Of a stretch of DNA of 23,887 nt, positions 1-7,521 are shown piece after piece (position 1 is the first letter of the stretch; each line of letters begins with the position of its first letter). The position numbers were made by a program, and so were the translations under genes. The notes beneath the pieces were generated by a model. That model was not told where the DNA came from and searched no databases. It worked only from the letters and a program-made list of their open reading frames with translations. This DNA is from a virus: the IMG/VR virus record IMGVR_UViG_3300011008_000259. One strand, written 5' to 3'.

Positions 1-112
1 ATAATAATCCAGTATATAATTTCGAGAATATTATCCAGACTGGATTACGTATAAACCCAATTCACATATTATAGAATTCCGGTTTTTGAAAAATTTTAAG
101 CCTCTTAATACG

Positions 113-137
113 TTTTTTAATTGTATATTATATATTA
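113..137 (+). promoter_or_regulatory. Conserved intergenic motif copy A (TTTTTTAATTGTATATTATATATTA), putative phage promoter upstream of the gene starting at 203
   Basis: The 17-nt core TTTTAATT(A/G)TATATTAT recurs at 1795-1820, 7460-7485 and 17390-17420 on the + strand and at 10662-10685 on the - strand. Every copy is intergenic and upstream of a co-oriented start codon. Confidence 0.5.
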
Positions 138-202
138 GTATAAGCTATAGATTATATTTAATTTGATCGATAACTTAACATTAAAGGAGGTTTAAAAAAT
201 CG

Positions 203-1723: not shown

Positions 1724-1731
1724 TATTTATA

Positions 1732-1770
1732 ATACCATAAAGAGAAATCTCTATGGTATTATATTTTTAA
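1732..1770 (+). terminator. Rho-independent terminator after the gene ending at 1723
   Basis: Hairpin ATACCATAAAGAG-AAAT-CTCTATGGTAT followed by a T-rich tract. Confidence 0.6.
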
Positions 1771-1794
1771 ATTATTTTTTATTATATTAAATCG

Positions 1795-1820
1795 TTTTTT
1801 AATTATATATTATATAATTA
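1795..1820 (+). promoter_or_regulatory. Conserved intergenic motif copy B (TTTTTTAATTATATATTATATAATTA)
   Basis: Same 17-nt core as copy A. It lies about 30 nt upstream of the ATG at 1846 of the disrupted Bro-N gene. Confidence 0.45.
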
Positions 1821-2547: not shown

Positions 2548-2590
2548 ATATACTGTAGAGATAACTCTCTACAGTATATTTTGTCTAAAC
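2548..2590 (+). terminator. Rho-independent terminator after ORF 2105-2533
   Basis: Perfect 13-bp stem ATATACTGTAGAG-ataact-CTCTACAGTATAT followed by TTTTG. Confidence 0.6.
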
Positions 2591-2652: not shown

Positions 2653-5385
2653 ATGATGTCAGATATTACTAGCAAACATTTTTATTGTCTGGCTAAAGAA
2701 TCTAATTTATATGTATTAGATCCTTATAAGCATGGAAGAGATAATAAGTTATTATTTTATTCTCATCTTAAAGATGCTATTGATGCTATGCCATCATTTG
2801 CCGAAAATGAATTATATTCTGTATATGTACCTACACTGATAGATAAATTAAAAATACATGATGCTGAATATGGAGTAATGATAGCTACTGAACCGATAAG
2901 AGTGAAATTTTGTGGTTTATGTAGAATAGAAAAAAATAGTGATTATTTTGATAGGTTTGAACAACGTCTTATAGTAGATGAATCTTCTAGAAATCTAGCT
3001 AAAGTTATTAGTGATGAATATAGAGATAATGGACCATTAAAAGATCTTGAAGATTTTAGTTATTTGCTCGATCATACTCCATTAGATAAAATATATTTAT
3101 CATCTGATTGGCATCTATTTAAAGAAAAATATAAAAAAGAAAAGAATAGAGTTAATATAGATAAGATAATAGATTGGTGTCAAGATAATATTAAACCTAG
3201 TGATATATTTATGTATCTTGGAGATATAAGTTATAGATTTGCTTCATTACAAGATCAACAAAAATCTGCTAAAATAATGAAATCTATACCTGGTCATAAA
3301 TGTTTAATACTTGGTAATCATGATGTATTTATTGGGCAAGAATATTATAAAGATGCTGGGTTTGATTATGTATTTGAAGAATATGAATGGAGAAATATAA
3401 TTTTTTCTCATAGGCCATTAAAAATGGAACTTGATAAAGATAAACTTAATATACACGGTCATATGCATGAAGAAGTTACTTATAGAACTAGTAATGGAGA
3501 TCATCATGTTAATGTATATCCTTATTTTTATAATAATAAACCTGTAAATTTAAAATTTATATTAGATCATAAACAAGAATTAATGAAAGACCATGTATGG
3601 GAACCTAACTATGGTTACGGTGAAGGAGCTTTACCTGTGAGGAGTTACTTTCAAACATTGCACAGTTCCTCGGGTAATATTATAATTAATGAGTTGGCTT
3701 CTAGATATGGACGTGAATCTAGAAGATCTGTAGTATATTTCTCTAAAAATATTAATAGTAAAACTATTAAAGATATGATAGAAAAATTATCTATACAGCT
3801 TAAAAATAAAGTTGCTATAAAATTACATTTTGGCGAGAAAGGTAATAAGAATTATCTTAATCCTGAATTATTAAAAGATACTGTAGAATATTTAACTAAT
3901 AAAGATTATGATTATGCTTTAGTAGATTGTAATACCACATATGGTGGTTCTAGAGATACTACTGAGGGACATCTTAAAGTTGCTAGAGAGCATCATTTCT
4001 CTGATAATTATAAAGTAGAGATTTTAGATGCTAATGGTGGTATGACATTAAGTAATCCTGAATATAATAAGATAGAAAAAGAATTAGATAAAATAAATAC
4101 TAAAGAAGATATTAAATTATATCAGTTAAAATCTACACCCGGAATACATATTAAAGAAATTGATATTGGTAGCGGAATAAAAGATTACGGTAGTATGATA
4201 GTATATACCCATTTTAAAGGTCATGAAATGGCTGGATTTGGTGGAGCTATTAAGAATATTGGTATGGGTCTTGCTACTGGAAGAACTGGTAAGATGCAAA
4301 TCCATAGAGATTGGAAATCTGATAATTTATTCTTAGAGAGATTAGTAGAATCTGCTAATACTATAACATCATTCTATGATGGTAAAATGATATTTATTAA
4401 TATATTAGCTAACATATCATTGGAATGCGATTGCCATGGAGATTCTAAAGTGAAACCTGTGATGGACGATATTGGTATTGTTGCTGGTAGTGATATTGTT
4501 GCTGTAGAACAAGCATCTATAGATCTTATTAGAAAAGCTTCTGATAATAAAGAACTTATGGAACAAATATCTAATATCGGAGCTTATCATGCTATAGAGT
4601 ATGCTGAATGGTTAGGAATGGGTAATAGAGAATATATATTAAAAGATATTAATTGTAATAATATTAATATAGATGAATGTATACAAACTCATATGGGTAA
4701 ACATGTAACTGAATCTAGTATAGATGAATCTTTCTTATTATCTGATGATGATTTAATGTATAATTTCGATAAATTTTTATCTGGTGAGACTAATATGGCT
4801 CTTGTAGTAGGATTCTCCGGATCTGGTAAAAGTACTATAAGTGCTGCTATGAAAATGAATTCTAATTTGACTGTATTTTGTTCATTAGATGAATTGATTA
4901 ATATTGCTGATGGATTAATACAATTAAATCAAGCAAGTACTATAATGCAAAAATATTATAATCAAGTCGGAATTAAGCTATTACAATCTAGTGATTATTT
5001 AGATTATTCTTATAAAGCTGTTAATATATATTATTCTTTTATAAAATGGATTGATGATGTTGCTATGCATAGTAGTAATATTAAATTTGTTGTTGAAGGT
5101 CTCTGGCCATTATGTTTTAATGATAGGCCTGAAAGGTTTCAAAATATATGTGTTATTATCAAAGGAACTTCGTGGTTAACATCTACTTATAGAGCAGCTA
5201 ATAGAGATCAAAATAGACAAGATATTATGGCTAGATATGGTATGAAAGTATTTAAAAATGCTTTCCTCCGTTTTATAGAATATATTAAAAATAATTCATA
5301 TAGATTTGATAATAAAGATTTAATGATTAAAAATATAACTAAGTGGAGAGAATATTTTACTGCAAAACAAATAATGAAAAAATAA
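2653..5385 (+). CDS. Large multidomain protein: N-terminal unknown region, calcineurin-like metallophosphoesterase, DUF362-like domain, C-terminal P-loop kinase-like domain (polynucleotide kinase-phosphatase-like)
   Basis: 910 aa; SD AAAGGAG. MPP motifs are SSDWH, YLGDISYR, LGNHD, HRP and HGHMH. The P-loop is GFSGSGKST with a downstream SLDEL, which resembles T4 Pnk-type kinases. The central region carries KLHFGEKGN, THFKGHEMAGFGGAIKNIGMG and CDCHGD, which I remember as DUF362-like patterns. Confidence 0.6.
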   Translation: MMSDITSKHFYCLAKESNLYVLDPYKHGRDNKLLFYSHLKDAIDAMPSFAENELYSVYVPTLIDKLKIHDAEYGVMIATEPIRVKFCGLCRIEKNSDYFDRFEQRLIVDESSRNLAKVISDEYRDNGPLKDLEDFSYLLDHTPLDKIYLSSDWHLFKEKYKKEKNRVNIDKIIDWCQDNIKPSDIFMYLGDISYRFASLQDQQKSAKIMKSIPGHKCLILGNHDVFIGQEYYKDAGFDYVFEEYEWRNIIFSHRPLKMELDKDKLNIHGHMHEEVTYRTSNGDHHVNVYPYFYNNKPVNLKFILDHKQELMKDHVWEPNYGYGEGALPVRSYFQTLHSSSGNIIINELASRYGRESRRSVVYFSKNINSKTIKDMIEKLSIQLKNKVAIKLHFGEKGNKNYLNPELLKDTVEYLTNKDYDYALVDCNTTYGGSRDTTEGHLKVAREHHFSDNYKVEILDANGGMTLSNPEYNKIEKELDKINTKEDIKLYQLKSTPGIHIKEIDIGSGIKDYGSMIVYTHFKGHEMAGFGGAIKNIGMGLATGRTGKMQIHRDWKSDNLFLERLVESANTITSFYDGKMIFINILANISLECDCHGDSKVKPVMDDIGIVAGSDIVAVEQASIDLIRKASDNKELMEQISNIGAYHAIEYAEWLGMGNREYILKDINCNNINIDECIQTHMGKHVTESSIDESFLLSDDDLMYNFDKFLSGETNMALVVGFSGSGKSTISAAMKMNSNLTVFCSLDELINIADGLIQLNQASTIMQKYYNQVGIKLLQSSDYLDYSYKAVNIYYSFIKWIDDVAMHSSNIKFVVEGLWPLCFNDRPERFQNICVIIKGTSWLTSTYRAANRDQNRQDIMARYGMKVFKNAFLRFIEYIKNNSYRFDNKDLMIKNITKWREYFTAKQIMKK

Positions 5386-5494
5386 TATTTTATTATAGTA
5401 ATAACATAAAAAATAATAAAAATCTATTCTCTATTTATCTTATTTAGATTATTATTATTTATATAAATTATTTTAATAAAAAGGAGTCTTAACT

Positions 5495-6190
5495 ATGTTA
5501 GGCGGATATTTAATTAAAGTTGTTCCTGGTAAACTTCCTCAGAAAGTTGCTTCTGGTTTTGATAAGGTTTTTAATGGTTTTACTGGTGCTAGCTATACTC
5601 CCATTGCATATCTCGGTCATCAGGTTGTTAATGGAATTAACCACGCAGTTCTTTGTGAACAGAATCTTGTAACTGCTAAAGATGTTAAGGGTATTGCTAT
5701 TGTCGTTCTTAATGAAAAACCCGGTGATATCGGTGGAGAATCATTAGAGCTTGTTGAGATTAAATCATGCTTCACTGATAAAGGCATGAAACTTGGTGGC
5801 ATTAACATTACTCCTTCAGCAGAGATTCCTGAAGATGCTATGAAAGTTTGGAATAAGCATTTCGGAAGTGGTTTCTTTGGTGCTTCGAATAAACCATTTG
5901 CTCTTCTTGCTACACAGGTTGTTCATGGAGTTGCTTATTTCTATGCTGTTGAATCAACTATGATTGTTTCACCTATTGGGAATGACGGTCTTGTTATGAG
6001 TGCTGGCAATAATAAGTCAATTACTATTGTTAAACTCTTTAGCGAATATCCTGAGATGCAGTCTATGACTATTCTCGAAGGTGTTGAAGATGCTATTCTT
6101 GAGGGTACTGGAGAAGCAGCTCCTGGAGTGCTTGGACCTGTGCTTGTTGATAATCAGAAGAATGTTGTTAAGTACGCTTTTAATTGGTAA
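5495..6190 (+). CDS. Highly expressed 231-aa protein made of two tandem ~95-aa repeats, each with a cystatin-like Q-V-V-x-G motif
   Basis: SD AAGGAG. Repeat 1 is GFTGASYTPIAYLGHQVVNGINHAVLCEQ and repeat 2 is GFFGASNKPFALLATQVVHGVAYFYAVES. Codon usage differs sharply from the neighbours (GC about 38%; frequent CTT, GTT, GGT and CAG). Confidence 0.5.
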   Translation: MLGGYLIKVVPGKLPQKVASGFDKVFNGFTGASYTPIAYLGHQVVNGINHAVLCEQNLVTAKDVKGIAIVVLNEKPGDIGGESLELVEIKSCFTDKGMKLGGINITPSAEIPEDAMKVWNKHFGSGFFGASNKPFALLATQVVHGVAYFYAVESTMIVSPIGNDGLVMSAGNNKSITIVKLFSEYPEMQSMTILEGVEDAILEGTGEAAPGVLGPVLVDNQKNVVKYAFNW

Positions 6191-6203
6191 GTAAGTTATT
6201 TTA

Positions 6204-6240
6204 TTCTCTCTAGTCATTTGACTAGAGAGAATTATTGTAC
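6204..6240 (+). terminator. Rho-independent terminator after the gene ending at 6190
   Basis: Perfect 13-bp stem TTCTCTCTAGTCA-tt-TGACTAGAGAGAA followed by TTATTG. Confidence 0.6.
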
Positions 6241-6274
6241 AAAAAATATTAATATATGAAAAGAGGAAAATAAT

Positions 6275-6955
6275 ATGAGTGTTATAATAGGTGAAAATGG
6301 TATAATTCAATGCAGAGAAGATAAAATGATGATCCCTCTTTTAAGAGGCGATGATAAGATTAAATTAGATAATTTTTATAATTTTTTTATTAAACCTATG
6401 ATGTCCGGGTTTGTTGATATGGTATTTGATGTTTATAAACCCGTATTAGAAACAGCTATTAATAATTCAAGTGAATTTATTAAAAATACTGTTAAGATTA
6501 TTGATGAGCCATATGAGCATGTTATTTTAAAAAATAATGAAATAGCATCAGTTAGTGATATGTACGATACTTATGGTAAAGTATTTATGAAATATGATGC
6601 TCATAGATATAATATTGATGATACTGATGAATATACCGAACTTCAAGCTAGAGTATCATATTTAGGTGATTTTTATAATGAAGTTAACGATTCTATATGG
6701 AAACTAGATATAACTGAAATCTTAAAAGTGTATAATTTTGATAATAATAAGATACAGTTAGAAGGCCCATTAGCAGTTATAGATATGAATTTTAATAGCG
6801 ATCAGACTATTGCAGTATTTTGGTGCAGACCTAATATTGAAATAATGATTCCTTTGATTAAGGATACTTCATTAAGATTAGATAGTATATTACATTCAGA
6901 AAATAAAATATTAGATTTAAAACGTGAAATAGCTCAACTCTCATTAGTAAAATAA
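6275..6955 (+). CDS. Hypothetical protein
   Basis: 226-aa ORF with SD AGAGGAAA; no recognisable motif. Confidence 0.6.
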   Translation: MSVIIGENGIIQCREDKMMIPLLRGDDKIKLDNFYNFFIKPMMSGFVDMVFDVYKPVLETAINNSSEFIKNTVKIIDEPYEHVILKNNEIASVSDMYDTYGKVFMKYDAHRYNIDDTDEYTELQARVSYLGDFYNEVNDSIWKLDITEILKVYNFDNNKIQLEGPLAVIDMNFNSDQTIAVFWCRPNIEIMIPLIKDTSLRLDSILHSENKILDLKREIAQLSLVK

Positions 6956-6972
6956 ATTATAATATATAACTG

Positions 6973-7431
6973 GTGATCGATATGAGTGATAAAACTGCAT
7001 GGGTAGAGAAAAAATTTAAAATTTATGAACCGGGTAAATTAATACCTGATCTTAATAGAGTTTATGATGAAACATCATATAAAGAATCCATGGAGAATGA
7101 CCGTATTAAAGAATTAATGAAAAGTCATATGTTTCCTCTGTTGACTCATAATTATGTATTAAAACAAATTAATGATCCCAATTTATCTGAGGCAGCAAAA
7201 CTTAGTTATAAACCCGGAAAAGAGTTAGGTATAGTAACTGATTGGAAAATCGGAGAAATTACAACTATAATAAAACCAGAATATGTAAAAATCATCGATG
7301 ATTTAAAAATTGATACTGTTTTCCATTATATGATTGGAACAGAAGTGTATAAAAGTGAAGATGATTCTTATACGATAATTCGTAATATTAAAGTTATATT
7401 CTTTTATTTGAAAAATATAGAAATAAATTAA
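6973..7431 (+). CDS. Hypothetical protein
   Basis: 152-aa ORF with a GGTGA SD 5 nt upstream; no recognisable motif. Confidence 0.55.
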   Translation: MIDMSDKTAWVEKKFKIYEPGKLIPDLNRVYDETSYKESMENDRIKELMKSHMFPLLTHNYVLKQINDPNLSEAAKLSYKPGKELGIVTDWKIGEITTIIKPEYVKIIDDLKIDTVFHYMIGTEVYKSEDDSYTIIRNIKVIFFYLKNIEIN

Positions 7432-7459
7432 TATTTTTTTATTTATAAAGCTTAAATCT

Positions 7460-7485
7460 AATTTTAATTATATATTATATAATTA
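7460..7485 (+). promoter_or_regulatory. Conserved intergenic motif copy C (AATTTTAATTATATATTATATAATTA) overlapping the upstream terminator stem
   Basis: Same 17-nt core; about 55 nt upstream of the ATG at 7539. Confidence 0.45.
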
Positions 7486-7521
7486 ATGATACCGTTTCCG
7501 GTATCATTAATTTATTTTTTT
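7481..7521 (+). terminator. Rho-independent terminator after the gene ending at 7431
   Basis: Perfect 14-bp stem AATTAATGATACCG-tttc-CGGTATCATTAATT followed by TATTTTTTTG. Confidence 0.7.

Follow-up and report, generated by a model that had tools for sequence, protein, structure and literature searches.

What is a short AT-rich sequence doing when it recurs at five places between the genes of an uncultured virus? The window analysed here, a stretch of 23,887 nucleotides of viral DNA taken at its full length (IMG/VR record IMGVR_UViG_3300011008_000259), was the subject of a preliminary description that reported five copies of an identical 15-17-mer, took them for a dedicated phage promoter "as with T4 late or middle" promoters, and suggested that the motif be tabulated genome-wide. 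Here we report that the five copies are very probably early promoters of an uncultured AR9/PBS1-like jumbo phage, read by a virion RNA polymerase (vRNAP). This reading is built on sequence comparison, and it is weighed below against three others, in which the copies serve the host polymerase, another phage-specific enzyme, or a DNA-binding protein or mobile element.

G+C makes up about 27% of the window, its ORFs lie almost all on the + strand, and they are preceded by strong Shine-Dalgarno sequences. It is essentially a whole metagenomic contig (ENA ERZ3810914 NODE_307, 23,949 bp, with about 69 bp more at one end), fragments of which are also found in JGI sample 3300011005. Megablast of the whole window against a collection of 50,697 phage records gave no match, and the 291-aa protein found none there by tblastn either. 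A 360-aa protein (19718-20800) matched there only the Bacillus phages AR9, PBS1, Internexus, Goe21 and BpSp and Listeria phage LPJP1, each with a record of 224-256 kb; AR9 and PBS1 are one species, Takahashivirus PBS1, and BpSp has been grouped with them in published work. The window is also syntenic with a 249-kb IMG/VR contig (L121) at 24-54% amino-acid identity, and several of its proteins have homologs that adjoin vRNAP genes in other contigs. Judged by these likenesses, the window is part of an uncultured AR9/PBS1-like jumbo phage.

Four exact copies of the 17-mer TTTTAATTRTATATTAT are present in the whole window, all on the + strand (at 115-131 and at the cores of copies 2, 3 and 5 in Table 1). 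The minus-strand copy departs from it by one mismatch (TTTA for TTTT). The recurrence first described is borne out. Among 100 dinucleotide-preserving shuffles the exact 17-mer was found on average 0.00 times, with 0/100 reaching four; with up to two mismatches allowed, the window holds six matches against 1.03 expected, and no shuffle reached six. When the copies are aligned together with their flanks, a TTAA about 10 nt upstream (4/5 copies) is followed by a T-tract, by a core AATTRTATATTAT that is invariant across all five, and then by ATA. The base that follows the octamer TATATTAT after six intervening nucleotides is G, A, A, G and G in copies 1 to 5, and this purine gives the predicted starts listed in Table 1.

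Table 1. Predicted early promoter copies and associated hairpins in the window
Feature	Position	Strand	Details
Predicted early promoter copy 1	105..138	+	TTAA 105-108; TTTTTTAATTGTATATTAT 113-131 (T-tract + core); predicted +1 G 138
Predicted early promoter copy 2	1787..1820	+	TTAA 1787-1790; core 1797-1813; T 1819, predicted +1 A 1820
Predicted early promoter copy 3	7452..7485	+	TTAA 7452-7455; core 7462-7478; predicted +1 A 7485
Predicted early promoter copy 4	10662..10685	-	TTTAAATTGTATATTAT 10685-10669; predicted +1 G 10662; then RBS GAAAGGAAGTGAT, ATG 10609
Predicted early promoter copy 5	17383..17416	+	TTAA 17383-17386; core 17393-17409; predicted +1 G 17416
Degenerate sixth copy	18344..18356	+	13-mer core AATTGTATATTAT only, in last codons of 291-aa ORF
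Hairpin AATGATACCGTTTCCGGTATCATT	7481..7512 (stem-loop 7485-7508)	+	-12.4 kcal/mol, z -3.7; starts at predicted +1 of copy 3; T-run after
Hairpin	17418..17441	+	+3 to +26 of predicted copy-5 transcript; -9.2 kcal/mol, z -2.7
Hairpin, T-runs on flanks	1728..1763		closes single-gene unit begun by copy 1
Terminator-like hairpin	2548..2579		closes unit begun by copy 2
Terminator-like hairpin	10019..10048	+	closes unit begun by copy 3
Terminator-like hairpin	18378..18405	+	closes unit begun by copy 5

All five copies are intergenic, and counted from the end of TATATTAT, the nearest plausible start codon is 71 nt away for copy 1 (ATG 203), 33 or 59 nt for copy 2 (ATG 1847 or GTG 1873), 60 nt for copy 3 (ATG 7539), 59 nt for the minus-strand copy (ATG 10609) and 74 nt for copy 5 (ATG 17484), in keeping with the placement first described (all intergenic, 30-75 nt from start codons). 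The chance of finding 5/5 between genes is fairly put at about 0.3^5 rather than 0.08^5 once the AT-richness of the spacers is allowed for. Since the bare octamer is common (31 occurrences in the window, about one third of those outside the five copies also being intergenic), specificity sits in the full 17-20-mer.

A sixth, core-only copy (Table 1) is to be added to the original count of five. The T-tract is absent from it (GAAC stands there), as is the T-purine pair at +18/+19. AR9 vRNAP has been reported not to tolerate single deviations from its promoter consensus (PMC5312081), and with flanks as degenerate as these the sixth copy is probably not functional.

Copies 1, 2, 3 and 5 each head a unit that consists of essentially one gene followed by a hairpin. 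The genes encode, in order, a 506-aa HTH protein (203-1723), a disrupted Bro-N protein (1847-2533), an 821-aa protein resembling the MVP shoulder and SPFH domains (7539-10004) and the 291-aa protein (17484-18359). The early motif is absent from the blocks 2653-7431, 10840-17326 and 18435-23707, which are presumably read by another polymerase class. Two of these blocks contain very large multidomain proteins (2653-5385 and 10840-14604) with a common phosphoesterase module, 12391-12872 being 67% identical in nucleotides to about 3093-3581. A 910-aa protein combines the phosphoesterase with DUF362 and a weak AAA_17 match, and in a 1254-aa protein the phosphoesterase is joined by GNAT acetyltransferase, transglutaminase-like and DUF6582 domains; homologous modules adjoin vRNAP genes in several related contigs.

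Some of the genes behind the copies have features of their own. The Bro-N gene is interrupted by an early stop or frameshift after seven codons and carries an 88-bp tandem duplication (1987-2074/2075-2162, 82% identical) with GC-rich hairpins at 2031-2060 and 2121-2145. The 821-aa protein has Major Vault Protein shoulder and repeat domains (Pfam PF11978, 1e-23; PF17795, 3e-8) and a weak SPFH/Band-7 match; AR9 gp180 is annotated as an SPFH-domain lipoprotein. A Bro-N/KilAC (Ant) gene is present in multiple copies, at 18435-19223 of the window and in three further loci (L142 12258-13097, L150 2786-3241 and L159 10906-11676), with 35-71% amino-acid identity among the paralogs. In L150 a predicted early-promoter copy, with an identical +1 hairpin, lies 59 nt before the paralog, and in L142 one lies about 760 nt before it; upstream of the window's own gene there is only the degenerate core at 18344.

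The minus-strand copy was originally assigned to a "lone minus-strand gene". Its orientation does match an ORF of 113 aa (10609-10268) with a good ribosome-binding site, a sequence that also follows two motif copies on sister contigs. A homolog search with this ORF, however, returned nothing, self-hit included, and codon-usage scoring was ambiguous both for it and for the convergent + strand ORF 10095-10541, which it overlaps by about 274 nt. The + strand ORF matches phrog_2018 only over its first 78 aa, and coding potential drops within the overlap for both ORFs. With no homolog, an ambiguous codon score and an overlap with a PHROG-matched ORF, copy 4 may drive either an orphan gene or an antisense RNA against ORF 10095-10541.

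A scan of IMG/VR for the motif gave mostly single chance matches; it also gave clusters, which lie on contigs of the sample series that includes the window (3300011008 and 3300011005). Twelve such sister loci add 24 unique copies of the core. A 106-kb contig (3300011008_000045) has at least eight motif copies together with an ortholog of the vRNAP beta'-N subunit (L134 2481-3845, minus strand), which matches AR9 gp144 at 29% identity (1e-46) and does not match the non-virion paralog. In tblastn searches the sister loci also yielded orthologs of the AR9 DnaB-like helicase, DNA polymerase, RNase H, GroEL and intron-split terminase. No RNA polymerase gene lies on the 23.9-kb window contig itself. 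In tetranucleotide composition the sister contigs correlate with the window more closely than any other fetched locus (r 0.991-0.992), a hairpin at +1 is common to both, their Bro-N/Ant paralogs are 84% and 77% identical in nucleotides to the window's, and an 88-nt intergenic segment of the window (6-93) recurs at 91% identity at L152 8653-8743 (contig 3300011008_000333). From the sample series, the composition, the paralogs and the motif itself we infer that the window belongs to the same genome as the vRNAP genes.

Scans for tRNAs found none in the window or the 12 sister loci, and Rfam at gathering thresholds gave no match of any kind in the window, L134, L152 or L122. On L152 the homolog of segment 6-93 is followed by a stretch that is GC-rich and apparently structured (about 8760-8880) and that lies downstream of the intron-split terminase pieces; the shared segment may be part of an intron or of a repeated element.

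The window and the 12 sister loci together (87% coding by a crude ORF call) contain 29 unique sites, and these provide the tabulation that the preliminary description had suggested. Placement and orientation both follow the genes: 24 of the 29 are intergenic, and with two more that touch an ORF edge 26 sites are not wholly inside a called ORF, of which 23 have a co-oriented called gene downstream. Of the remaining three, one has a 37-aa ORF and its ribosome-binding site downstream, one a non-coding repeat array of about 700 nt, and one the window's uncalled minus-strand ORF. Downstream of the core, T is found at +18 in 25/29 sites and a purine at +19 in 28/29; the positions 6N downstream of the core lay outside every search pattern. 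The predicted +1 across this phage's sites is A in 19 cases and G in nine. The search patterns introduced some bias into the T-tract and TTAA columns; of ten sites that came up secondarily, TTT stands at -4 to -2 in 7/10, and TTAA is not universal.

The non-coding array is found at L134 3908-4690 (IMGVR_UViG_3300011008_000045), where a motif copy is followed by about 700 nt with a longest ORF of 37 aa. Fifteen units of 37-38 nt make it up, every one carrying an RTGAAT(T/C)A and an AAATAAnTTT box, and a strong terminator hairpin stands at its end; Rfam has no match for it. Possible identities are a transcription-activated origin or iteron array, a non-coding RNA with repeats, and a series of ATG-AAT-stop minigenes.

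Hairpins recur at the predicted 5' ends. Across the window and sister loci, 10 of the 29 predicted transcripts open with a stable hairpin, its start lying at +1 to +3, and the ATACC..GGTAT hairpin of copy 3 is found at +1 in L142 and L150 as well. Such hairpins fit the predicted start site and could serve as 5' stabilisers. The one at copy 3 is either a leader stem-loop at the 5' end of the transcript or a terminator for the unit before it, and with its T-run directly after +1 it could equally terminate or attenuate the copy-3 transcript.

The same orientation data bear on the idea that the copies are operators for a phage DNA-binding protein such as the 2xHTH protein, or else iterons, recombination sites or the core of a mobile intergenic element, which we consider extremely unlikely. 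An HTH gene does lie behind copy 1, and copies 2 and 3 are nearly palindromic (AATTATATATTATATAATT), with reverse-strand near-matches at 1807-1823 and 7472-7488. The palindrome is missing, however, in copies 1, 4 and 5, and with 2/5 copies palindromic the operator reading was rejected. The strict orientation towards downstream genes, the conserved T-purine 6 nt downstream and the fixed range of distances to start codons also speak against it, and the flanking sequence is not conserved, contrary to what a mobile element would suggest.

For the identity of the promoter class, the closest comparison is with Bacillus phage AR9. Its early promoters, mapped by dRNA-seq and primer extension, have the consensus AAATATATATTAT-(6N)-G+1, and they are active in the absence of protein synthesis and are ascribed to the virion RNA polymerase (Lavysh et al. 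2017, PMC5312081). We extracted the 34 annotated early promoters from the AR9 genome (NC_031039). All of them carry TATATTAT in the same register as the window motif, and the first, at position 47, reads AATTATATATTAT, which is exactly the 13-mer core of the window. A purine 6N downstream of the octamer and a T before that purine are common to both phages, as is an intergenic position 30-120 nt upstream of co-oriented genes. An element containing TTAA about 10 nt before the 13-mer is likewise shared in part, as CCGTATTAAA in 8/34 AR9 promoters and as TTAA in 4/5 window copies. The two phages differ 5' of the octamer, where AATTR stands here and AAATA in AR9, and in the conserved T-tract (TTTT), which brings the conserved length to about 17-20 nt here as against 13 in AR9. 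They differ also at +1, where A is predicted about twice as often as G here and AR9 has G.

Orthologous genes are marked in the same way. On the sister contigs the motif lies directly upstream of the DNA polymerase gene (L141; AR9 gp151) and of the RNase H gene (L153; AR9 gp240), both identities being confirmed by Pfam, and in AR9 both genes have annotated early promoters. In two other phage lineages the gene homologous to the window's HTH gene also has such a sequence in front of it, TTTTAATTATATATTAT-6N-G in L135/L140 and a form of the motif with two mismatches in L170. In the 249-kb contig AATTGTATATCAT-6N-G stands before the homolog of the 291-aa gene; across the rest of that syntenic block promoter positions are not conserved gene for gene, and the 291-aa gene is the only one with the variant.

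A further set of loci was chosen by the polymerase and not by the motif. An alignment of vRNAP beta' from L134, L095 and AR9 retrieved 80 loci out of at least 218 IMG/VR relatives, and 79 of these (964 kb, 91% coding), lying outside the sister contig and selected by vRNAP beta' homology only, form an independent set. The exact 13-mer has 29 unique sites in it and none in reversed-sequence controls; 27 of these sites lie between genes, and N5-TG follows in 23. With a looser 10-mer, the flank consensus in the vRNAP-chosen loci is TTTAATTR-TATATTAT-A-N4-TG, which is the window motif. The motif therefore tracks possession of the virion polymerase across a large, mostly uncultured clade. Seen from the other side, about 80 of the roughly 160 loci that were fished by the motif alone carry AR9 homologs.

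The IMG/VR stretches that encode AR9-type vRNAP beta'-N relatives, loci L169-L248 among them, number at least 218; many are on contigs of 200-310 kb, and many have HMP-style (7000000xxx) sample numbers. Together they suggest that AR9-like jumbo phages form a large uncultured clade with a common TATATTAT-N5-TG motif.

The placement and orientation statistics for the window and about 1 Mb of related DNA, together with near-identity to a mapped AR9 promoter, uphold the original proposal of a dedicated, co-oriented phage promoter that is not due to chance. By homology with AR9, we infer that the motif is transcribed from the predicted +1 and that vRNAP is the enzyme that reads it. Sequence on its own cannot name the enzyme, because a host sigma-A -10 element would likewise look like TATTAT at -12 to -7, 7 nt before the start.

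Strong promoters of the host sigma-A (sigma-70) type, with TATTAT as the -10 element and the T-tract and TTAA as an UP-like element or a weak -35, are nevertheless an improbable explanation. TATTAT shares 5/6 positions with TATAAT and has the expected distance to a conserved purine, the upstream region is AT-rich, and the strong Shine-Dalgarno sequences indicate a Firmicute-type host. There is no -35 hexamer, however: read directly, the hexamers at 16-18 nt spacing have about 2/6 matches to TTGACA. Nor is there an extended -10 TG at -15/-14, because the R is one position off. In a first-half scan the five copies were absent from the best 60 of 75 sigma-70-type matches, and sigma-70-like sites were not above shuffles (75 vs 91; 112 vs 106). 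Conservation at 17 or more nearly invariant positions reaches well beyond sigma contacts and is in the style of a phage polymerase, unlike degenerate host promoters, and the motif's occurrence follows possession of a phage vRNAP rather than host type. The same consensus works in AR9 without new protein synthesis and is ascribed there to the injected virion polymerase (PMC5312081). Infection by the related PBS2 is reported to be rifampicin-resistant.

A dedicated phage promoter might also be used by another enzyme or at another time, namely by the non-virion polymerase for middle or late genes, or by the host core polymerase with a phage sigma-like factor. AR9-like phages do have genes for a second polymerase and for a sigma-like HTH protein, and elsewhere some motif-bearing genes lie near structural-type genes, for example on L152. 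We regard such a reading as highly unlikely: the mapped late consensus of AR9, AACA-(6N)-TA/G, is quite different (PMC5312081), and the motif-bearing DNA polymerase and RNase H genes are orthologs of genes with early promoters in AR9. AACA-N6-TR was found 16 times upstream of genes, as against 12.2 +/- 3.3 in shuffles and nine in antisense, so that no late class could be defined; this null result fits published remarks that the late promoters of these phages are not predictable from sequence. A simple test for enrichment of oriented 7-mers recovered only the early motif and Shine-Dalgarno sequences.

Under the preferred reading, that of early promoters for vRNAP, a multisubunit RNA polymerase packaged in the virion would be injected along with the DNA and would recognise the near-invariant (T)TTTAATTRTATATTAT, centred at about -10. 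Transcription would start at the purine seven bases after the motif, with six nucleotides between and usually a T before the purine, and would need neither host RNA polymerase nor new protein synthesis. Each copy in the window would head a short unit, mostly of one gene, ended by a hairpin terminator. One could go further and suppose that the T-tract, with or without the upstream TTAA, is a second recognition module gained by this vRNAP, which would give the polymerase a specificity distinct from that of AR9, and that early transcripts also have non-coding roles; we hold this extension to be unlikely. Its non-coding part could draw on the third of early transcripts that begin with a hairpin at +1 and on the array of about 700 nt on the sister contig, as an origin or a decoy RNA.

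In practical terms, the motif marks the window as DNA of an AR9/PBS1-like jumbo phage and points to the genes probably expressed first: the HTH regulator, the Bro-N remnant, the MVP-shoulder/SPFH-like protein, the orphan ORF or antisense RNA, and the conserved 291-aa protein. AATTRTATATTAT-N5-TR is a simple tag with which contigs of this poorly sampled phage group can be recovered from metagenomes, and its uses lie in early-gene annotation and in the recovery of AR9-like contigs. AT-rich early promoters read by vRNAP are established for AR9, phiKZ and phiR1-37 and predicted for others, so that the finding extends a known principle and adds no new one.

Among known systems, AR9 is the closest and others resemble the window's motif in part. 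According to a review, an AT-rich motif of this kind, with its centre near -10, stands before the early operons of every jumbo phage that encodes RNA polymerase (PMC7598289). Staphylococcus phage MarsHill, an AR9-like phage with both RNA polymerases, has TATATTAT upstream of 29 genes (bioRxiv 10.1101/2020.12.14.422802); this was a purely bioinformatic find, the likeness consists in the octamer, and the host lineage differs. Phages of the phiKZ type follow the same logic, with an injected multisubunit polymerase, a highly conserved AT-rich element and a start fixed 6 nt downstream (PMC5312081, PMC7598289), but their consensus sequence differs from the window motif. PhiKZ-like phages also form a nucleus; here no chimallin was noticed, without a systematic search for it.

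The analogy with phage T4 in the preliminary description captures one aspect, a short phage-specific promoter class reused across the genome. The late promoters of T4 (TATAAATA, gp55) and its middle promoters (a MotA box with a -10 element) serve the host core polymerase together with phage factors, after the early phase. Their sequences do not match: TATAAATA is not conserved anywhere in the alignment of the window copies, in which the motif is TATATTAT. The window motif matches instead the early, host-independent class, and its right analogue is the vRNAP early promoter of AR9 and phiKZ.
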